From a virus (lineage: Duplodnaviria; Heunggongvirae; Uroviricota; Caudoviricetes): a DNA stretch of 35,158 bases. Below the pieces are notes generated by a model that saw only the letters and a program-made list of their open reading frames with translations, did no database searches and had not been told where the DNA came from. A program made the position numbers and the translations under genes. Shown in pieces: positions 17,910 to 27,041 of the stretch; positions within the stretch are counted from its first letter, which is position 1, and each line of letters opens with the position of its first letter. Location of the stretch: the IMG/VR virus record IMGVR_UViG_3300000176_000003, positions 64,001 to 99,158 of that record, one strand, 5' to 3'.

Positions 17910-18311
17910 TTATTTTGATATGGCTTTTAGGTGAACTTCGGTTATCTTACAAGAAACCCATGAATTATAATAGGTTTCATTTAACAATGCGTCTTCAGCA
18001 AAAATAAACTTGGTTTCATAATAGGCACATTCAGATCGGTTTTTACATAACCTAAGGATTTCTCGATGAAATCCTTCTTTACCATATTTTTGGATATCTG
18101 CTAATAAATATTTTGATGATCCAAAATAGGTTTTCCAATCAGACTCTTTTCTGATTTTTTTCTTTTTACCATTGACTTGTTTTGTTCCGGCCAGGGTAAA
18201 GTATTTCCTGCCAATATACTGTTTTCCAGTAGTGGTGTGGGTTATTCTATAAACAAAACCGTATGCGCCATTTGGGTCTTCAAATTCAGACCCATTATAA
18301 AACCAAGTCAC
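17910..18311 (-). CDS. Single-domain GIY-YIG nuclease
   Basis: GFVYRIT...KQYIGRK...WKTYFGSS...E...YYN motifs; no appended DNA-binding domain. Confidence 0.75.
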   Translation of the reverse strand: MTWFYNGSEFEDPNGAYGFVYRITHTTTGKQYIGRKYFTLAGTKQVNGKKKKIRKESDWKTYFGSSKYLLADIQKYGKEGFHREILRLCKNRSECAYYETKFIFAEDALLNETYYNSWVSCKITEVHLKAISK

Positions 18312-18457
18312 TCTTCGTAGTAATACTCGGAATCGGAATCATCTTCATCAACGAATTCTATATCTGAACCACAGAATGGACAATAATCCACCGAAGGTCC
18401 AGTATCAGAAATGACTCTAAATTCTTCTTCGCAACTGTTACAGGTAATCCATTTCAT
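18308..18457 (-). CDS. Small Zn-ribbon protein (49 aa), missing from the ORF track
   Basis: Manually translated as MKWITCNSCEEEF...YCPFCGSD..., with two CxxC pairs and TAATG coupling to the upstream ORF. Confidence 0.75.
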   Translation of the reverse strand: MKWITCNSCEEEFRVISDTGPSVDYCPFCGSDIEFVDEDDSDSEYYYEE

Positions 18458-19626
18458 TATAGGCTAAATCCCTTAAATGTAGTTTCGTTCACATCTTTAT
18501 TTATATCACCAATAATATAAGAAGTAATTTCACCTTCTGTAGCATATCTAATTAATAAATCCATATTCTTCCCCCAACGACTTTTAGGCCATCCCAACGA
18601 TAACTGTTTTTGAAACGTTGCATATGAACGACCATTTTCCATACAATATTTTTTTAAATCATTGCTATAGATAAATATGTTTAGTCCTTCTATATATAGA
18701 AGTTTTACTCCGGGTCTATTATAATGTTTTTTTCCTCTATTTGCTGCACCAATTTTATTGGCAGTTTCTGTGCCTTTTACTATTACACCATATCTTGCGT
18801 TGTTTTTACCAGAAGAAGCTTCCCTAAGTTTGATCAAACTTATTTCGGAATGTTTATGCCCTTTAAACCAGCCGCCCGCAGCCGACTGTAATATATTTCG
18901 CTTAGTTCTTTGATCTTCCGCCCCACCACCATATATATCTTCATAAGATTTACCTTTATGATTGGGCGGTCTATTATCTTCGCATATATTTGTAAGGATG
19001 CCCCCAATATCATAATCAATTCTACCATATTTTTTGATAAGAGTTCTTTCGATGTCATATGCTAAAGATTCGTCTTCTATATTCTGGGCATAAAACTCAA
19101 TAACAGGAGAATACCCGAGAGATTTTAATTTTCGTATTTTTGCGCTTTTTCTATTATTTCCAGATCGAGATAACACAGATTCGCTGAAATGAGAAAGGGC
19201 TCTATCATCCTTACCCTTACCAATATAAAATACCTGATTATTTCTTGGATCAATTAGACCGTATACATAGTATAACATTTCAGTCTCCTTTATTCTATTT
19301 ATAAAGACTGTGTTTGCGGCATATGTAATATGCTCTTCAGTATGGTTTGTACCATAACAAAAAATATTATATTTCCTTTGATCTAGGGTTGGAGTAACAT
19401 CCACCAGTTTATTTCCAATATCAAGTACTGAGTGCTTGAATGCGTGAAGTATGTTGTGACTGTCTTTTATAATGTAATAACCTAAAACAGGATTTATCTC
19501 ACAGTTTTTGTGGCACAAAAAGGGTAGATCGCCTTCTCTAGGAGAAATAACTATTTCTCGCAATTTCGTTGCTTTTAATGCTTTAGCGAAAGCAACACAC
19601 TCTTCAATTTCGGGAATAAAGTACAT
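18457..19626 (-). CDS. GIY-YIG endonuclease (internal start 19278) with an N-terminal extra domain and a C-terminal duplicate of the NrdB tail
   Basis: YYVYGLIDPRN..VFYIGKGK..RA..H nuclease motif and NUMOD-like HSE.S..KLRE segment. It ends EITSYIIGDINKDVNETTFKGFSL. Confidence 0.8.
   Translation of the reverse strand: MYFIPEIEECVAFAKALKATKLREIVISPREGDLPFLCHKNCEINPVLGYYIIKDSHNILHAFKHSVLDIGNKLVDVTPTLDQRKYNIFCYGTNHTEEHITYAANTVFINRIKETEMLYYVYGLIDPRNNQVFYIGKGKDDRALSHFSESVLSRSGNNRKSAKIRKLKSLGYSPVIEFYAQNIEDESLAYDIERTLIKKYGRIDYDIGGILTNICEDNRPPNHKGKSYEDIYGGGAEDQRTKRNILQSAAGGWFKGHKHSEISLIKLREASSGKNNARYGVIVKGTETANKIGAANRGKKHYNRPGVKLLYIEGLNIFIYSNDLKKYCMENGRSYATFQKQLSLGWPKSRWGKNMDLLIRYATEGEITSYIIGDINKDVNETTFKGFSL
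19296..19303 (-). promoter_or_regulatory. Late promoter inside the ORF, followed by AAGGAG and ATG 19278
   Basis: Minus strand reads TATAAATA-gaata-AAGGAG-actgaa-ATG. Confidence 0.7.
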
Positions 19627-20732
19627 TATAGGCTAAAACTCTTAAAAGTATTTTCGTCCACATCTTTGTTTATACCACCAATAATATATGAAGTAATTTG
19701 TCCTTGTTGTGGTGCGACTTGTACTTCTGCCCCCGATATCCACTTTTGAGTCCAAGGTAGAGGATTAGACCCCATAGACTTTCCATTAAGCCCAATAGCC
19801 CCCATACGCTTATGACCAATCCAATCGACATAATCGCAGAGAAGCTTTTCATTAAGACCAATCATAGAGCCATCCTTGAACAAATATTTTGCCCAAGTCT
19901 TTTCTTGATCAATAACTGAATCAAAAATATCAACCACTTCATTGTGAGTTTCTTCCTTGATCTTAGCAAAGTCTGGATCTTCTTGAGGAAGAATCTTTAG
20001 AAGTTGTTGAGTAGCTGCAAGGTGGACATTCTCATCACGAGCAATAAGCTTAATGATCTTAGCATTACCTTCCATTTTCTTGACTTCAGCAAATGCCCAA
20101 GAGCAAGCAAATGATACATAGAAACGAATGCCTTCAAGAGCATTAACTGCGTTAAGGCAGAGCCATAATGCTTTTTTATGATTAAAAGAACCACCATATT
20201 GCATAGCCGCATAATTATATGTTTCAATTACACTAGATATATTATTTTGAGCAATCAAATCATCGTAATACTTACTAATATCACCAGCACATTCTACAAT
20301 CTCTGGGATATCAAGCATCTCATCAAACACTACTGATGGATCGGGGTACACGTTACGAATGATATGAGTATATGAACGAGAGTGAATAGTCTCTGAAAAT
20401 GACCAAGTCTGAATCCAAGTCTCAAGTTCTGGAATAGAACAAATAGGAAGGAATGCTAGAGAGGGCGCTCTACCTTGAACCGAGTCCAAAAGAATCTGCC
20501 TCTTTAGATTGGAGGTAAAGATATGCTTCTCATGTGTAGTTAAGCTCTTAAAATCCTTACTATCTCGTGATAGTTCAATTTCTTCTGGACGCCAAAAAAA
20601 TGATAATTGTCTTTCTGTTAGCTTTTCAAATGCTGGATATTTTACTGATTCGTATCGAGCAATGTTAACTGGCTCTCCGAAGAAAGCCAGTTGCTTAGTA
20701 TGATCTACTTTATGTATATTAAATACTGACAT
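19626..20732 (-). CDS. nrdB: Ribonucleotide reductase class Ia beta subunit
   Basis: FFWRPEEI, LDSVQGR, ETIHSRSY, LEGIRFYVSF and RDENVH motifs. Confidence 0.97.
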   Translation of the reverse strand: MSVFNIHKVDHTKQLAFFGEPVNIARYESVKYPAFEKLTERQLSFFWRPEEIELSRDSKDFKSLTTHEKHIFTSNLKRQILLDSVQGRAPSLAFLPICSIPELETWIQTWSFSETIHSRSYTHIIRNVYPDPSVVFDEMLDIPEIVECAGDISKYYDDLIAQNNISSVIETYNYAAMQYGGSFNHKKALWLCLNAVNALEGIRFYVSFACSWAFAEVKKMEGNAKIIKLIARDENVHLAATQQLLKILPQEDPDFAKIKEETHNEVVDIFDSVIDQEKTWAKYLFKDGSMIGLNEKLLCDYVDWIGHKRMGAIGLNGKSMGSNPLPWTQKWISGAEVQVAPQQGQITSYIIGGINKDVDENTFKSFSL

Positions 20733-20959
20733 TATTCCTCTACTATTCTAAATGCTTTTCTAGACACTATTGTATCATAATTACGGCCCTTAAGTCTAAT
20801 CAAAAGACCATCACCTATACCAGAATATTGATGAGCAGATTCTACTTCCCATACTATACCAATTTCGCTCCACCATTGCGGATCATTAAATGTAATTTTC
20901 GTTCCTGGTGTAATTATTAAATCTTGCATATCATATTTTCCATGTTTTAAATAGTACAA
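20732..20959 (-). CDS. Hypothetical protein
   Basis: 75-aa ORF coupled between nrdA-c and nrdB. Confidence 0.5.
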   Translation of the reverse strand: MYYLKHGKYDMQDLIITPGTKITFNDPQWWSEIGIVWEVESAHQYSGIGDGLLIRLKGRNYDTIVSRKAFRIVEE

Positions 20960-21951
20960 CTATCACAATTTTCTTCGTCAGTGTCACCTTTCGCCAGTTC
21001 TTCTACCCTCATTTCACCAGCACCATCATTCGTATTATTATAATAAAGCGTCTTAATACCATACTTATATGCCATCAAAATATGCTTTAACATTTCCGAT
21101 AATGGAATCTTTTCATCAGGATAGAACTTTGGATTATAAGAAGTATTAGTAGAAATAGATTGGTCAATCCACTTTTGTAATACAGCCATAATCTTTAGAT
21201 ATCCTTCTGGTGAAGATTGGTCCCACAGAAGTTCATACTTATTTTTAAGTTTGCGCACTTCGGGAACAACTTGCTTTAATACACCTTCACGAGAACTCTT
21301 AATCGACACTAAAGCACGCGGAGGTTCAATTCCATTTGTAGAATTAGACACTTGAGCAGAAGTTTCTGCTGGCATTAGAGCCATTAGAGTAGAGTTACGA
21401 ATGCCGTATAGATCAGCTTCTTCACGAAGAAGATTCCAGTCCATGGACACAGGACGCGAAGTTAATTCATCAACCTCCTTCTTATATGTATCTATAGGAA
21501 ATTGGCCATGCCCATACTTAGTTTCATACCACTTATCACAGGCTCCCTTTTCTTTGGCTAGATCAATAGAAGCTTTAATTAGATAATAAGACCAAGCTTC
21601 TGTATATTGGTCAATTAAATCTAGATTGGGATTAGTATAGGTCATATCGTTCTTAGCCATCCAATATGCTAGATTGATAATACCAATACCTAAAGGGCGA
21701 CGATTCATTGTAGAAAGTTGTGCAGCAAGAACAGGGTAACTCTGATAATCAAGTAGAGCATCAAGAGCGCGTACTGCTAGAGTACAGGGCTTTTCAAAAT
21801 CAGATGTCTTTTTAATTTTACCCCAATTTATCGCACTCAAAGTGCATAAGCTAATCTCAGATTTACAATCCGATTCAAATATATCAGTCACATATACATG
21901 ATCTGAATCATCATGATCAATATTATCAACAATTTCGTATTTAAAATTCAT
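20947..21951 (-). CDS. nrdA: RNR alpha subunit fragment c (C-terminal) with an acidic N-terminal tail
   Basis: EISLCTLSAIN (C462-equivalent), RRPLGIG, MPAETSAQ, DQSIS, KTLYY and terminal CDSC. Confidence 0.93.
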   Translation of the reverse strand: MNFKYEIVDNIDHDDSDHVYVTDIFESDCKSEISLCTLSAINWGKIKKTSDFEKPCTLAVRALDALLDYQSYPVLAAQLSTMNRRPLGIGIINLAYWMAKNDMTYTNPNLDLIDQYTEAWSYYLIKASIDLAKEKGACDKWYETKYGHGQFPIDTYKKEVDELTSRPVSMDWNLLREEADLYGIRNSTLMALMPAETSAQVSNSTNGIEPPRALVSIKSSREGVLKQVVPEVRKLKNKYELLWDQSSPEGYLKIMAVLQKWIDQSISTNTSYNPKFYPDEKIPLSEMLKHILMAYKYGIKTLYYNNTNDGAGEMRVEELAKGDTDEENCDSCTI

Positions 21952-22543
21952 TATATTTCCTTATATGTTTAGTGAAATTTCCTAAATCCCATTCTTTGTG
22001 ACAACACACACAACATATTTTTTTACCCTGTAAATGAGATGTTCCATTTGGTGCTTTTTTGAGATTATATTTGCCTCGTTTTTTATTTAATTTAGATTTT
22101 CTCATTTTTTCTTTAGTTTTATCAGAAATGTGAATAACTCCACGCAAACCTTTATTCCAAGGAGTCTTTCCTTTCTTACTTAATGAAAGTTTTTTTCTAT
22201 GTTCTATTGTTTGAGGTCTTTTAGGTATACCTTTTTGTGTTTTGCTAATTTTATTTTTATGTTCTTCACTTAATCCCATTTTAGATGGGTTGTTTAGTTT
22301 CATTCTATTAGATGTATTTAAAGGGTGTTCTTTTGATTGCCAATAATGATCATTATGCTCAATTTTATTTTTTTGTGCTTTAGAAAGGGTTTCTCTTACT
22401 TCTAACGATCTAATTTTTCCTTTATTGCTTTTAGATATTTTATCTGCGGTGGAAGAGCCTTTAACAATTCGTCCTAAAGAGGGCGAGATTTTATTTACAA
22501 CGGCTTTGCTATTATTCCAAACTTCCCAATCATCTTTATACAT
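21941..22543 (-). CDS. NUMOD3-like DNA-binding repeat protein; probable homing endonuclease remnant with no recognisable catalytic domain
   Basis: Repeated H..E...KIS...KG motifs (EEHKNKISKTQKG, EHRKKLSLSKKGKTPWNKG). No GIY-YIG or HNH motif, and the in-frame upstream sequence hits TAG after ~24 codons. Confidence 0.7.
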   Translation of the reverse strand: MYKDDWEVWNNSKAVVNKISPSLGRIVKGSSTADKISKSNKGKIRSLEVRETLSKAQKNKIEHNDHYWQSKEHPLNTSNRMKLNNPSKMGLSEEHKNKISKTQKGIPKRPQTIEHRKKLSLSKKGKTPWNKGLRGVIHISDKTKEKMRKSKLNKKRGKYNLKKAPNGTSHLQGKKICCVCCHKEWDLGNFTKHIRKYNEF

Positions 22544-22559
22544 TAGTTTAGTATTAATA

Positions 22560-23555
22560 TCAGATTCGTATTTTTTTGCTTTTAATTGGGGTATTGGGAT
22601 TTGATTTTTTCCATTCTAAATACTTTTTATATTCTTCTTTAGTCAGTTTCATTACTTTAACTATTGGACTACCGTCTTTCAGATCATTTAATGGCTTAGT
22701 TGGAAGGGTAATTTCGGCGCAAAGATTTGATTGGCGAATTGGTGCGACTTCAGATAAAAATGAACCGTGATCATTACAATGATCCACATTCATTAGATAT
22801 ACACGTCCAGTATCCTTCCGTTCTTGAACAAATGATGAGAACATGTCAATTGCGGGTACTTGCTTTTTTCGCAGCTTTGGGTTGCGTTCTGCGCGCTCAT
22901 ATAATTCTCTAAATTTATTTGAGTCTACAAAGAATGCTTCATAGAGTTCTGGTACGTCATGGGGACTAAAGAGTGTGATATTTCCACCATTAATAAGTCG
23001 CTCATACATCACCTTATTGAATTGTACACCATAATCTAGATGTCGAATCCGGTTATCTTCAGTACCTTTATTATTTTTTAGGACTAAAAGTTCCTCCGCT
23101 TCCAAGTGCCAGATTGGGTAATATAATGTAGCCGCTCCTCCACGGACCCCCCCTTGAGAATTGTGAGTAAGAACCATTTCTGATTCTGGAGAATTTGCAG
23201 CAAAAAAAGTGTGTGTGTCTTCTACAGTAATATCAATATAATTAATTGAAGTATTTCCTTTAGATACACTAATAATTTTAGTATGATTATTATCTGTTAA
23301 GATTTTATCAGAAAAAAGTAAATTATCTGGCAATACTGTAAATTGCATATTGTCTTTTTCAATCATTATTGGGTGATTTTTTGAACAATTTAATTCAGTT
23401 TTATTGTCAAAAATAAGAGTTCTTTGATCATCTATGCAAACTTCAGTTTCCCAAATGTCAGTTACAGTTTTAAAAACAACATTTTTGTTGGCATCTAAAG
23501 TTTTAATTTTCATACCAACTACCAAATCTTTTAGTTGAATTTTTTTAGTTTTCAA
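22560..23555 (-). CDS. nrdA: RNR alpha subunit fragment b: IntC + central extein + basic tail
   Basis: TTG start with AAGGA RBS. The extein runs SQGGVRGGAATLY...SNLCAEITLPTKPL (N437/C439/E441-equivalents). Confidence 0.92.
   Translation of the reverse strand: MKTKKIQLKDLVVGMKIKTLDANKNVVFKTVTDIWETEVCIDDQRTLIFDNKTELNCSKNHPIMIEKDNMQFTVLPDNLLFSDKILTDNNHTKIISVSKGNTSINYIDITVEDTHTFFAANSPESEMVLTHNSQGGVRGGAATLYYPIWHLEAEELLVLKNNKGTEDNRIRHLDYGVQFNKVMYERLINGGNITLFSPHDVPELYEAFFVDSNKFRELYERAERNPKLRKKQVPAIDMFSSFVQERKDTGRVYLMNVDHCNDHGSFLSEVAPIRQSNLCAEITLPTKPLNDLKDGSPIVKVMKLTKEEYKKYLEWKKSNPNTPIKSKKIRI
23160..23555 (-). mobile_element. NrdA split intein C-half (132 aa), +1 Ser
   Basis: It starts with the second half of block A (KIQLKDLVVGMKIKT) and contains block B LNCSKNHP, block F YIDITVE and THN|S. 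Confidence 0.88.
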
Positions 23556-24378
23556 TTTTATATTCCTTGATTTGCGGCTTATCCCAATTATGATATTGTA
23601 TCATATGTTTACTAAAATTACCAAGATTATATTTTTTATTGTTATTACAATCAAAAGGACAAGCTCTATATTTATTTTTATCATTCATCGCACAATCAAC
23701 ACCATACTTTTCTATGTTTGTTTTTTTGCTTTTAAAATTTCTGTCTGTCCAATCTTTTTCTTCCATAACTTTTTTATGTGTTTCTTTTGTTTTTTTATCA
23801 AACATCATATTTGTTACCCCATGTTTATCAAACATAACTTCTGATAATTTTTTTGGGTTTTTAAATGGGTTGTCTGTACCATATATTGTTTCTATAGAAT
23901 TTTGTCTTGGAGTTTTTACTATATCTAAATCTAATGTATGGTGTTTTCCATATTTTTTTATATTTGTTTTATATATTTTATCTTTTATTATTTTTGATCC
24001 TGATCCCCTTGAACCATATTTTTCTATTAATTTTGTATTTACTTTTTCTTGCACTTTATCAAATTCAAAAGGAAATGGTCCTTCTATATTTAATGGAACC
24101 ATATTATTATTCCATCTATTTAAATATTTTTTATTGTTTGGTATGTTTAATTTTTTAAGAACTTTGGTTTCCCATAATAATGCTGAATTCTTATCTTTAA
24201 AAACTTTTCTAATTTCTATTAGATTTGGTTCTCCATGTTTTTCAATAAACAATTTTACATATTTTGAAGATGACATATAGGTACTGCCAATGTCTTCTAA
24301 TTTTGCTTTTTTTGAATACCTAACTCCATAATAATATTTGTCTTGTTGTGTCCATCCTAGTAAATAAGTATAATACAT
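23545..24378 (-). CDS. GIY-YIG-like homing endonuclease between the NrdA intein halves
   Basis: YTYLLGW...YYGVR...YMSSSK...WETKVL...LN N-domain and repeated KTNIxKYG motifs. Very AT-rich. Confidence 0.8.
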   Translation of the reverse strand: MYYTYLLGWTQQDKYYYGVRYSKKAKLEDIGSTYMSSSKYVKLFIEKHGEPNLIEIRKVFKDKNSALLWETKVLKKLNIPNNKKYLNRWNNNMVPLNIEGPFPFEFDKVQEKVNTKLIEKYGSRGSGSKIIKDKIYKTNIKKYGKHHTLDLDIVKTPRQNSIETIYGTDNPFKNPKKLSEVMFDKHGVTNMMFDKKTKETHKKVMEEKDWTDRNFKSKKTNIEKYGVDCAMNDKNKYRACPFDCNNNKKYNLGNFSKHMIQYHNWDKPQIKEYKIEN

Positions 24379-24396
24379 ATTTTTCTCCTTTATACT

Positions 24397-24404
24397 TATT
24401 TATA
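24397..24404 (-). promoter_or_regulatory. Late promoter of the intervening endonuclease
   Basis: TATAAATA followed by the AAGGAG RBS and ATG 24378. Confidence 0.75.
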
Positions 24405-24410
24405 GTTTTC

Positions 24411-24428
24411 TCTAACGCCACCCTGGCT
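24411..24428 (-). repeat. Out-of-frame synonymous copy of the C-extein start (SQGGVR)
   Basis: AGC CAG GGT GGC GTT AGA overlaps the IntN stop codon. The real extein reads TCT CAA GGG GGG GTC CGT. Confidence 0.75.
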
Positions 24429-25333
24429 TATTCCTCAATAACTTCGACCCAGGTTTCTGGAGTAAGACAACACGATTTAACAGCACTTTGAAAATGTTTA
24501 TAAAAAGGTATAACTCCAGTATGACTAGCGTCACCATTACGAATGGGACTGCCAATAGCCCTAATACGACCAGCACCAATACCAATCCCAGCCTTTTGAC
24601 TAACATACTTAACGACTGCTGCAGATGTTGCATTGATGGAATCGAGTGAGTCATCAGTTTCGATAAGGACACATGAGCTAAACTGCCTTTGAGGCGTGCG
24701 AACTCCAGCCATAATAGGAGTAGGAAGGCTAATATCAAAAGTGCTAATGGCATCATAAAATTCCTTTACCCATTTAAACCGATCTGTTGTGTATTTTGAA
24801 AATAGAGTCATTGCGATAAGAATGAATGACATTTGTGGTGTTTCATAGAACTTGCCCGTTACGCGGTTCTTAACAAGATACTTACCGCGAAGTTGTTCCA
24901 TTGCCGCATAAGTCAGCAATTCGTCCCGAGAATGATCAATCAATGTGTCAGCAAACTTCCATTCGTCTGCAGTATATGCATCGAGTAGCTGACGATCATA
25001 ATAACCTTCCTTTACTACATGTACGACATGAGTATATAGATTATCAGGAGTAAACCTACCATAAACTTCCTTACGAAGATTATAATTGATTAGGCGTCCC
25101 GCAACATATTGATAGTTTGGATGTTCTTCAGAAATCAATTCGGCAGTAGCCTTAATTAGAGTTTCTTGAATATCGGTTGACTTAATATTATTATAAAACT
25201 GAATCTGTGATTTAATTTCAATTTCAGATACAGATACTCCAGATAGACCTTCACATGCTTGTTCAACTACCTTATGGAACTTGTTTAGATTTAACGGTTC
25301 TTTTGTTCCGTTGCGCTTAGTTACATTAATCAT
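24428..25333 (-). CDS. nrdA: RNR alpha subunit fragment a (ATP cone, C225-equivalent) + IntN
   Basis: VTKRNG.KE ATP cone, ETPQ, SLPTPIMAG, QFSSCVLI and GIGIG motifs. Confidence 0.95.
   Translation of the reverse strand: MINVTKRNGTKEPLNLNKFHKVVEQACEGLSGVSVSEIEIKSQIQFYNNIKSTDIQETLIKATAELISEEHPNYQYVAGRLINYNLRKEVYGRFTPDNLYTHVVHVVKEGYYDRQLLDAYTADEWKFADTLIDHSRDELLTYAAMEQLRGKYLVKNRVTGKFYETPQMSFILIAMTLFSKYTTDRFKWVKEFYDAISTFDISLPTPIMAGVRTPQRQFSSCVLIETDDSLDSINATSAAVVKYVSQKAGIGIGAGRIRAIGSPIRNGDASHTGVIPFYKHFQSAVKSCCLTPETWVEVIEE
24431..24469 (-). mobile_element. NrdA split intein N-half, 13 aa (CLTPETWVEVIEE)
   Basis: It follows KSC of the conserved KSC|SQGGVRGG site, has a block A-like CL.PET.V, and is followed by TAA. 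Confidence 0.85.
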
Positions 25334-26004
25334 ACTTCATCCTTGGTGTTAAAATAATCTGTTAGTGCTGGGAAACTATTTAGGACTACTTCCTTACACT
25401 GTTCTGCAATACTGCGATGTTCTAGCTGAGTAGCCTTATCAGTACGAATTTCGATATAATGCACCCACGAACGAAGTGTGCCCGCCATATAAAGAGTAGA
25501 CCCGGTCATGCCCTCTGGTAGAATTGCGCGAGCCTGTTCCTTAGCAATACCCTTGTTAAGTGCCCACTCATATGTCTCTTGGATTTGTGCAAGTAAACTA
25601 GCTTGGCGCATACGAAAATCTTCCGCAAGACGACGAGATTTTTCATCATCACCCATAACAATTGAATTTTGACGATTCTTATTATCTTGTGTGCGGGCTT
25701 CCCGAAATTCAAAATTATCAGCTACCGCATATCGTTGAGAAAATTCTTGGAATGAAAATGACCGGTGACGCAGAATTTGACGAGCAATATCACGAGTAGT
25801 TTTAATTTCCATCGTAAGACTTACCATCTCCAATGGTGACCAATGGGCATTGTTAATAAGATACTTGACTAGCTTAGGGGCAGTTTCTGTATTCATTTGA
25901 TTAGCCGGATTAGATACTCGGGCAGCATATGCCACTAGATCGTTCGCATCCTTTACACCTTCAATTGTTGGTTGTGTAATACCAATTAGCTTCACATCAG
26001 ACAT
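25330..26004 (-). CDS. thyX: FAD-dependent thymidylate synthase
   Basis: HWSPLE, RHRSFSFQEFSQRYA and KEQARAILP motifs. The start is set at MSDVK (GAGGT RBS). Confidence 0.95.
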   Translation of the reverse strand: MSDVKLIGITQPTIEGVKDANDLVAYAARVSNPANQMNTETAPKLVKYLINNAHWSPLEMVSLTMEIKTTRDIARQILRHRSFSFQEFSQRYAVADNFEFREARTQDNKNRQNSIVMGDDEKSRRLAEDFRMRQASLLAQIQETYEWALNKGIAKEQARAILPEGMTGSTLYMAGTLRSWVHYIEIRTDKATQLEHRSIAEQCKEVVLNSFPALTDYFNTKDEV

Positions 26005-26021
26005 TTTTACCTCAAACAATA

Positions 26022-27041
26022 TTATTGTGTTTTTTTCCACTCATTAAATTTTAATGTTGCAGTCATACCAGTATATATATGCGAATCAATAATGTCAACA
26101 ATTTGTTTCTGAGTCATCCCACCCAAAACCATATCATTAATATCCTTATATTTCATATCAGAAGGCCAAATACATACTCCATAACCACTATTGATAGCTT
26201 GTCGAATACGCTTCACAATATCAACATTTCTAGGCTCATTATCGTATACATATACAGCATTTTCGTTCAAAAACTCCTTATTATTCATATCTGCTCCAGC
26301 CATAGCAATAGCATTAGGAACAAACATTGAATCGATTGGACCTTCTAGAATATAATAACGCCTAGTTTGATCCACAGTATCCAGACCAAAAGTCTTCAAA
26401 CGATCTTCAAGCATGATGGTGATATACCGAGCTTTATCATTAGGATCAAAACTACGACCCTGATAACCAAACATGCGCCCATCCTTATCTAGGAATGGAA
26501 TGACAAGTCTTGGGGTACCTTTCTCTGGATTAAGCTTATTGGGGATCATCGTGTTGGTCCACTTAGCATAATTAGAACAATAGAATAGTTTAGAATGATA
26601 TTCATTAGGAATCATTCTATTCAACACATATTGTTTTGCGGGATGATCCCACTCAAGTTGGGAAATCTTCTTAAGTTTAAGAAGGGGTGATCCAACCTTT
26701 AGAAATTCTGGGTACTTAAAAACCTTTGGCTTTTCTACTTCAACTTTTTGTTTTTTATCATTGTCACCATAAGTTTCTAGAACATATTGCTTATAAAGCA
26801 CAGGATCTAGTTCTCGTAGGAATGAACTAATGTTCCTACTAGCGCCACAATTAAAGCACTTAAAGATAATTGAATCTTGTTTTTGAAAAAAGTTTCCCCT
26901 AGTTTTTGAAGAATCTTTCTTGCTATCTCCGCAAATAGGACATCTAAAATTTGCTATATAAGGATTATAGGACTTAATCTTAAATCGTTCTAACCTAGTG
27001 GAAACCAAATTGGCAAACTTGATATCTACCCAAGAGGACAT
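26022..27041 (-). CDS. gp61: DNA primase
   Basis: N-terminal CPICGD...CFNC zinc finger, RLVIPF...QGR, and TOPRIM EGPIDS and DNEPRN motifs. Confidence 0.95.
   Translation of the reverse strand: MSSWVDIKFANLVSTRLERFKIKSYNPYIANFRCPICGDSKKDSSKTRGNFFQKQDSIIFKCFNCGASRNISSFLRELDPVLYKQYVLETYGDNDKKQKVEVEKPKVFKYPEFLKVGSPLLKLKKISQLEWDHPAKQYVLNRMIPNEYHSKLFYCSNYAKWTNTMIPNKLNPEKGTPRLVIPFLDKDGRMFGYQGRSFDPNDKARYITIMLEDRLKTFGLDTVDQTRRYYILEGPIDSMFVPNAIAMAGADMNNKEFLNENAVYVYDNEPRNVDIVKRIRQAINSGYGVCIWPSDMKYKDINDMVLGGMTQKQIVDIIDSHIYTGMTATLKFNEWKKTQ

Follow-up and report, generated by a model that had tools for sequence, protein, structure and literature searches.

The window, a stretch of 35,158 nucleotides (nt) that forms part of a 99-kb IMG/VR viral contig with a CheckV completeness of 58%, carries the ribonucleotide reductase (RNR) genes of a tailed phage. 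The gene for the large subunit, nrdA, is present as three open reading frames (ORFs), here called fragments a, b and c. One putative homing endonuclease gene (HEG1) separates a from b, and the remnant of another (HEG2) separates b from c. This three-piece anatomy is real, and an independent ENA assembly (156 kb) shows 100% identity over 7996 nt. A nucleotide search with the locus gave no match in the phage collection. The features are as follows, with lengths in amino acids (aa), pI for isoelectric point, and IntN and IntC for the predicted N- and C-terminal intein halves.

24428-25333, minus strand: ORF of fragment a, 301 aa
24470-25333, minus strand: extein of a, 288 aa, with the ATP-cone, the all-alpha domain, the start of the barrel and SSCVL; ends in KSC, corresponding to E. 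coli C292
24428-24469, minus strand: predicted IntN, CLTPETWVEVIEE (13 aa), and stop codon, assigned from homologous short IntN in relatives and a docking model
24397-24404, minus strand: TATAAATA box resembling a T4 late promoter by consensus match only, 18 nt upstream of the HEG1 start
23545-24378, minus strand: ORF of HEG1, 277 aa, between a and b
22560-23555, minus strand: ORF of fragment b, 331 aa
23160-23555, minus strand: predicted IntC, 132 aa, with a TTG start after AAGGA, block B CSKNH and block F DITVEDTHTFF; ends in THN
22662-23159, minus strand: extein of b, 166 aa, starting SQGGVRGG (loop 2) and containing SNLCAE
22560-22661, minus strand: basic C-terminal tail of b, 33 aa (pI 10.1), and stop codon
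21941-22543, minus strand: ORF of the HEG2 remnant, 200 aa, between b and c
20947-21951, minus strand: ORF of fragment c, 334 aa
21871-21951, minus strand: acidic N-terminal head of c, 27 aa (pI 4.05)
20947-21870, minus strand: extein of c, 307 aa, and stop codon, with EISLCTL, the YY pair and the C-terminal CxxC
19626-20732, minus strand: nrdB (ORF and Pfam), the small radical-generating subunit and predicted partner of the assembled NrdA
between fragment c and nrdB, minus strand: ORF of 75 aa
25330-26040, minus strand: thyX, first in the order of the locus and followed by fragment a

Pfam and phmmer comparisons show that a, b and c tile class Ia NrdA with no gap or loss. Pfam places the ATP-cone (PF03477) and the all-alpha domain (PF00317) on fragment a and divides Ribonuc_red_lgC (PF02867) among all three, with positions 1-69 on a, 69-221 on b and 214-522 on c. 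The features that define the class, namely the ATP-cone, the all-alpha domain and the full ten-stranded barrel (positions 1-522), are therefore all accounted for across the fragments. In phmmer alignments to E. coli R1 structures, residues 3-289 of a match R1 6-293, residues 131-298 of b match R1 291-458, and residues 28-331 of c match R1 454-756; the exteins cover R1 residues 6-292, 293 to ~457 and ~454 to 756, respectively. SSCVL on fragment a supplies the equivalent of C225, SNLCAE on fragment b supplies N437, C439 and E441, and fragment c holds C462 in EISLCTL, Y730/Y731 in LYY and the C-terminal Cys pair of the CxxC motif. Each of these catalytic residues is recovered in the R1 alignments. 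The initial annotation, which described a three-piece NrdA with the catalytic residues on separate fragments, agrees in every detail with the ORFs, the Pfam matches and these alignments.

At the a-b joint, fragment a ends in KSC followed by CLTPETWVEVIEE and a stop codon. Fragment b starts at a TTG codon preceded by AAGGA and encodes 132 non-RNR residues ending in THN, after which SQGGVRGG follows. Removal of the two intervening pieces gives KSC|SQGGVRGG, the sequence found uninterrupted in E. coli R1 and in ~70 intein-less relatives. The insertion site, C292|S293, is the N-terminal edge of specificity loop 2, in which the Ser293 backbone binds the effector, Q294 reads the substrate base and R298 contacts the substrate phosphates (bioRxiv 10.1101/2021.07.31.454598). 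All residues of class 1 splicing are present: C1 (CLTPET), S58-x-x-H61, H131-N132 and S+1. Residues C57, S58 and H61 of IntC are invariant in both alignments of relatives (39-66% identity), and D108, F117, F118, H131 and N132 are invariant in 25 relatives and at least 90% conserved in 29.

The AlphaFold model of IntC, built from an alignment of 29 homologues, has a predicted local distance difference test score (pLDDT) of 79.8. Every one of the 50 top-ranked PDB matches is an intein, a bacterial intein-like domain or a hedgehog HINT domain (TM 0.5-0.76); NpuDnaE, the NrdJ-1 split intein, Ssp DnaB and VidaL are among them (TM 0.6-0.76), and the predicted structure places IntC in the HINT fold. 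Precomputed PF14890 and PF07591 matches exist for IntC relatives at 46-66% identity. A phmmer search against PDB sequences returns only a weak match to the KlbA intein (E 0.009), and IntC is thus without a close solved relative. Residues 250-301 of a were docked with residues 1-170 of b, next to three controls, and scored by ipSAE; of 78 solved complexes 51 pass the mark applied, as do 2 of 108 mismatched pairs. The pair reaches 0.83 against 0.02 for the best of the three controls, a pass that, split inteins having already been solved, may reflect likeness to those structures and is not proof of binding. At least 66% of contacts are shared between runs, with a partner pLDDT of 46 or more. In the modeled interface, IntN (a 287-300) contacts b 1-9, 55-62, 117-123 and 130-133, which correspond to the first strand, block B, block F and the HN|S end of IntC. 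The two halves, encoded by separate ORFs, would in this model complete the fold with IntN in the expected groove.

A contiguous cis form, reading CLTPDTIVEIINEDGLETKK..., is inserted at this site in L005/L006 as well as Shewanella phage Thanatos-2, and the window version can thus be viewed as that mini-intein cut in the loop after the second strand. This S1 split position is that of the natural atypically split inteins VidaL and PolB16, and artificial IntN fragments of 11 aa splice (PMC13014065). The 15-aa IntN of PolB16 has been called the shortest characterized (PMC10189870); within the present family, IntN measures 12 aa in KARL-1, 13 in the window, and 15, 16 or 19 elsewhere. The split version and a homologous endonuclease gene are found together in the cultured Acinetobacter phage KARL-1. 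Most likely, the a-b joint is a split intein that trans-splices a to b, as the initial annotation proposed; the HINT-fold model, the conserved motifs and the docking score all point in this direction.

The intein position varies by one residue among relatives. The window frame is KSC|C...HN|SQGG with Ser at +1, and L004, KARL-1, Thanatos-2, P0008, P0013, P0021, P0036, P0041 and P0056 have KS|C...HN|CSQGG with Cys at +1. L005 (4089-8157) and L006 (2243-6311), from a 251-kb phage contig, combine the cis mini-intein with three further nrdA insertions with frame changes, of ~480 nt at C439, ~240 nt near the Aeh1 site and ~600 nt at the C-terminus. In the window, the 18 nt right after the IntN stop (24411-24428, minus strand) encode, out of frame, SQGGVR, the residues that follow the intein in b. 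This stretch and the next base match the intein-less nrdA of L065, L067 and L078 at 18 of 19 nt, and the stretch ends 6 nt before the TATAAATA box of HEG1. It is retained in L093, and in L088 it appears as QGGVRG with other codons. Possibly it is a mimic of the target site that serves as an operator for the HEG1 endonuclease, for which autorepression by I-TevI would be the model.

The b-c joint has a different character. The match of fragment b to R1 extends to about residue 457, beyond which come 33 basic non-RNR residues (pI 10.1), and fragment c opens with 27 acidic non-RNR residues (pI 4.05) before its R1 match resumes just ahead of EISLCTL. E441 and C462 flank the break, and the gap contains an endonuclease gene; this is the site of mobE in phage Aeh1, and the combination of a basic C-terminal tail and an acidic N-terminal head of non-RNR sequence is likewise of the Aeh1 type. 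The tails of 27 two- or three-piece relatives form one alignable family with the pattern xDG.P..K.IKV.K..Y..YL..K, and the heads of c share YEIV...D.EYVYV. No Cys/Ser/Thr nucleophile with an HN pair is found at the joint, and an Rfam search of 18000-26500, carried to E = 1, detected neither an intron nor any other RNA family. Judged by its sequence, the b-c joint is without an intein, which upholds the initial annotation, as do the position of the break, the charged tail and head, and the lack of intein profile signal. By analogy with Aeh1, c is most likely held to a-b non-covalently by the short charged tails.

In L023 (1416-3830) and KARL-1 (NC_049441 42729-44672), an in-frame fusion of tail and head forms an internal loop of ~50-55 residues, which implies that the tail's end and the head's start are close together in the folded enzyme. 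The former break appears to have healed there after loss of the endonuclease gene. Two candidate origins of the extensions were examined with hhalign and gained no support for the tail type of the window. Heads as fossil C-inteins reach a probability of 0.1%, and short tails as fossil N-inteins reach 0.2%, or 0.7% against the truncated-intein tails described below; the sequences are short and the power of these comparisons is low.

HEG1 has a GIY-YIG-like N-terminus, a DUF7487 match and a homing-endonuclease PHROG, and is putatively a free-standing homing endonuclease with homologues in the same position in L088 and Acinetobacter phage KARL-1. HEG2 contains NUMOD3 DNA-binding repeats and corresponds to residues 90-291 of a 291-aa GIY-YIG-type gene of L011, from which it follows that the GIY-YIG nuclease domain of ~89 residues has been deleted. 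The two share a C-terminal Cys...LGNFxKH motif (LGNFSKH in HEG1, LGNFTKH in HEG2). A protein search of the phage collection with HEG2 gave no match, and its BLASTP comparison with MobE gave E = 4.4, so that HEG2 does not qualify as an HNH enzyme of the MobE type. HEG1 overlaps the start of b, and HEG2 the start of c, by its final 11 nt, which in both cases supply the AAGGA site; the cassettes thus carry translation signals for the downstream nrdA fragment.

All three pieces are under purifying selection. The relative L093, found in two other samples at ~97% nucleotide identity, has the same three ORFs, with HEG1 shrunk to 73 aa and HEG2 to 95 aa. In comparison with L093, fragments a, b and c have ratios of nonsynonymous to synonymous substitution rates (dN/dS) of 0.068, 0.027 and 0.12, respectively, at unsaturated dS values of 0.10-0.17. 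Contiguous homologues at 83-87% identity give ratios of 0.07-0.11, and relatives at 70-75% identity have saturated dS, which makes their ratios unusable. Neither frameshifts nor internal stops occur in a, b or c. Between the window and L093, IntN with its stop codon and IntC show 0 differences over 438 nt, and 3-6% of extein positions differ; if the pooled rate for the exteins, 97/2286, is applied, simple arithmetic gives such identity a chance of ~6e-9. This points to recent exchange of the intein cassette. General mosaic recombination is an alternative because thyX is also nearly identical.

Recurrence was counted among the best 120 clusters matching fragment b, half of which (60/120) have IntC at the start. 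The window design, with a short basic tail, is seen in 16 of these 60 intein-led clusters. In 25 others a full second N-intein stands at the end, inserted after C439, and in 15 the tail is similar to an N-intein's second half (hhalign E 0.0011, probability 20%); two of the 60 have a short tail of another type and two extend into c. Aeh1-like a+b chains of 482-488 aa, the size expected of the spliced a-b chain of the window, make up another 47 clusters. The gene order was confirmed in L088, L089, L090, L091, L093 and the contig of P0002. L089 and L090 have at least three nrdA pieces, with or without endonuclease genes. The syntenic L088 (3209-7949) has three nrdA pieces and two split inteins with an endonuclease gene between the halves of each; the first is of the same short-IntN type at C292|S293, and the second is a canonical split intein (IntN of ~99 aa, IntC of 33 aa) inserted after C439. 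Among records of the cultured-phage collection, eight carry the intein found at the a-b joint, and the three-piece design was not seen in the cultured records examined (KARL-1, Thanatos-2 and VPALA). On these sequence comparisons the hybrid design is common in uncultured phages and not unique to this one.

Some of these relatives show further variation. L089 (128-3429), which has no endonuclease genes left, carries at least four nrdA pieces, with breaks at a short-IntN split intein, at a tail/head break and at a third split intein before TSAQISNS; its contig is a low-coverage assembly with an apparent frameshift further on. In L091 (4001-6836) and P0060-P0114 (15 clusters), a 45-aa tail at the Aeh1 site resembles the block-B half of an N-intein without Cys1, and it pairs with a short basic head on c. 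This tail may be a dead half-intein used as a docking piece. Beyond nrdA, a 389-aa GIY-YIG ORF (18457-19626, minus strand) directly follows nrdB and closes with a sequence (ITSYIIG.INKDV...FSL) that nearly duplicates the C-terminal tail of NrdB, through which NrdB binds NrdA. The homologous 387-aa ORF after nrdB in L088 is without this ending.

We consider it probable, at roughly 0.78, that two cassettes cut nrdA and that a and b are trans-spliced and joined non-covalently by c into a working alpha subunit. Each homing-endonuclease cassette would have fractured the class Ia gene and brought its own repair. The first would lie inside the mini-intein at C292|S293 and split it after the second strand; after translation, IntN would dock into IntC to complete the HINT fold, and Cys1, Ser+1 and Asn132 would drive trans-splicing to an a-b chain of 487 aa that has the native KSC-SQGG junction. 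Between E441 and C462, the other cassette would extend a-b by a basic tail and c by an acidic head. The two chains would then assemble non-covalently into an alpha subunit that pairs with NrdB, as shown for Aeh1, and by the same analogy the assembled pieces would carry out nucleotide reduction with NrdB.

Several observations weigh against this reading. The 13-aa IntN is below any characterized natural one (PolB16 15, VidaL 16), and the Pfam HINT-clan matches of the window IntC are sub-threshold (E 0.002-0.003), missing the curated cut-offs with 18.4 bits against 35.8 for Intein_splicing and 18.6 against 28.4 for Hint_2. At the second joint, HEG2 is a GIY-YIG-family remnant where Aeh1 has the HNH enzyme MobE, and homology of the tails to those of Aeh1 itself is a matter of visual alignment only. 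The predicted fold of the fused L023 protein (805 aa, 41-row alignment) has a mean pLDDT of 63 and values below 50 for residues 415-515, including the tail-head segment (~453-508), and so gives no confident tail structure and nothing on tail packing. Finally, the initial annotation named an intact nrdA elsewhere as a danger to its proposal; the 99-kb contig has no other Ribonuc_red_lgC match, but it is only 58% complete, and an intact copy may therefore lie elsewhere in the genome.

The short IntN and the sub-threshold Pfam scores of IntC would also suit intein halves that dock without splicing, so that the intein is only a clasp and all three fragments associate non-covalently. A pure clasp needs no splicing residues, and the presence of all of them, invariant or at least 90% conserved in 25-29 diverged relatives, therefore counts against it. 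So do the location of the break at the mobile specificity loop 2, where continuity of the chain likely matters, and the fact that artificial IntN fragments of 11 aa do splice (PMC13014065); we regard this alternative as unlikely. Less probable still is a decaying pseudogene, wrecked by selfish elements, in a phage that relies on the host RNR. HEG2 is truncated, and intein-riddled Campylobacter phage nrdA genes are thought to be degenerating (PMC3653736), yet dN/dS is 0.03-0.12 in all three window pieces at dS 0.10-0.17. Moreover, frameshifts and internal stops are absent, ribosome-binding sites, starts and every catalytic residue are retained, the design persists in lineages that are only 46-66% identical, and it is the endonuclease genes that decay and not the nrdA fragments.

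Covalent joining of b and c, by RNA splicing, ribosome bypassing or a cryptic intein, has precedents. Group I introns occur in nrd genes of T4-type phages, which also have a mobA-linked ribosome hop (bioRxiv 10.1101/2022.08.31.505936), Crona et al. raised descent of the Aeh1 tails from an intein as a speculation (PMC3045599), and the tails of some relatives resemble half an N-intein, as noted above. Nevertheless, fragment c has its own AAGGA site and ATG, and tail and head are conserved as protein. The joint offers neither a nucleophile with an HN pair nor, in 18000-26500, an Rfam family up to E = 1, the extensions stay below 1% hhalign probability against intein halves, and the Aeh1 tails are intact in the mature proteins (PMC3045599). 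We consider this the least probable of the alternatives, and a spliced a-b chain held to c by charged tails is the reading we prefer.

The preferred architecture is a hybrid of two known mechanisms. Its second break resembles the NrdA-a/mobE/NrdA-b arrangement of Aeh1 (Friedrich 2007; Crona 2011, PMC3045599), in which nrdA is also interrupted between the equivalents of E441 and C462, an endonuclease gene occupies the gap, and the upstream piece has a basic C-terminal tail and the downstream piece an acidic N-terminal head. The Aeh1 tails have pI values of 10.4 and 3.8, are intact in the mature proteins and are essential for activity (Crona 2011, PMC3045599). Non-covalent assembly was demonstrated there, whereas for the window it is proposed by analogy; furthermore, the gap holds a truncated GIY-YIG-family remnant instead of the HNH MobE, and the upstream piece would itself come from two genes through a split intein.

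The first break follows the fractured genes of Dassa 2009 (PMC2677866), which include NrdA-1 to NrdA-7, with the same order of N-extein-IntN, spacer, endonuclease and IntC-C-extein on one strand. The spacer is 49 nt in the window and 27-51 nt in that set, and a GIY-YIG endonuclease is among those of the split-intein fractured genes (PMC2677866). The NrdA inteins described there are only directly before C439, in contrast to C292|S293 in the window, which differs also in its split after strand 2 (13-aa IntN, 132-aa IntC) and in its second, intein-free break. VidaL (16-aa IntN, PDB 6vgv) and PolB16 OarG (15-aa IntN, PMC10189870) are likewise naturally split right after strand 2, and VidaL and the window intein are both cysteine-dependent. 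The two are unrelated in sequence, with 18% identity over the fold match. VidaL and PolB16 sit in other host proteins and have a longer IntN than the 13 aa of the window and the 12 aa of KARL-1; splicing by the window intein is a prediction.

Among other phage enzymes, the T4 topoisomerase genes gp39/gp60 are split by mobA, an endonuclease cassette that likewise adds C- and N-terminal extensions, and in the metagenomic MGS5 topoisomerase II, mentioned in passing in a 2022 preprint, ORF1 is also cut by a homing intein (bioRxiv 10.1101/2022.08.31.505936). These cases concern another enzyme and a ribosome-bypass cassette. The same authors note further, unpublished MobE-split nrdA genes with conserved extensions (bioRxiv 10.1101/2022.08.31.505936), and the split RNR genes of cultured phages listed by Dwivedi 2013 (PMC3653736) do not include the three-piece hybrid design. 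A literature search for a three-piece or doubly repaired NrdA found no description. The suggestion in the initial annotation that the combination is undescribed is thus sustained for NrdA and has to be narrowed in view of the similar combination in a phage topoisomerase II, reported in a 2022 preprint.

A more speculative view, which we hold to be improbable, is that the design is a stable, selected RNR build in which the loop-2 intein has been co-opted as a post-translational gate, with the timing or redox state of splicing controlling the supply of deoxynucleoside triphosphates. If this were true, no active alpha subunit would exist before the 13-residue N-intein trans-splices; the adjacent Cys292-Cys1 pair would provide a redox handle, and the nucleotide supply during infection would be controlled by splicing. 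The intein family, with an IntN of 12-19 aa and a copy in the cultured phage KARL-1, is also a candidate source of very short N-intein ligation tags.

RNR is a textbook single-chain enzyme, and the two-piece form of Aeh1 has been treated as a curiosity. In the phage described here, one active site is spread over three polypeptides that would be restored by two different post-translational repairs in sequence. The design appears frequent and evolutionarily stable in uncultured T4-like phages, and it comes in graded variants with two split inteins, four pieces or healed fusions. Such a natural series would help to show in what way selfish endonuclease cassettes break essential genes and carry their repair kits along, and how enzymes tolerate this.

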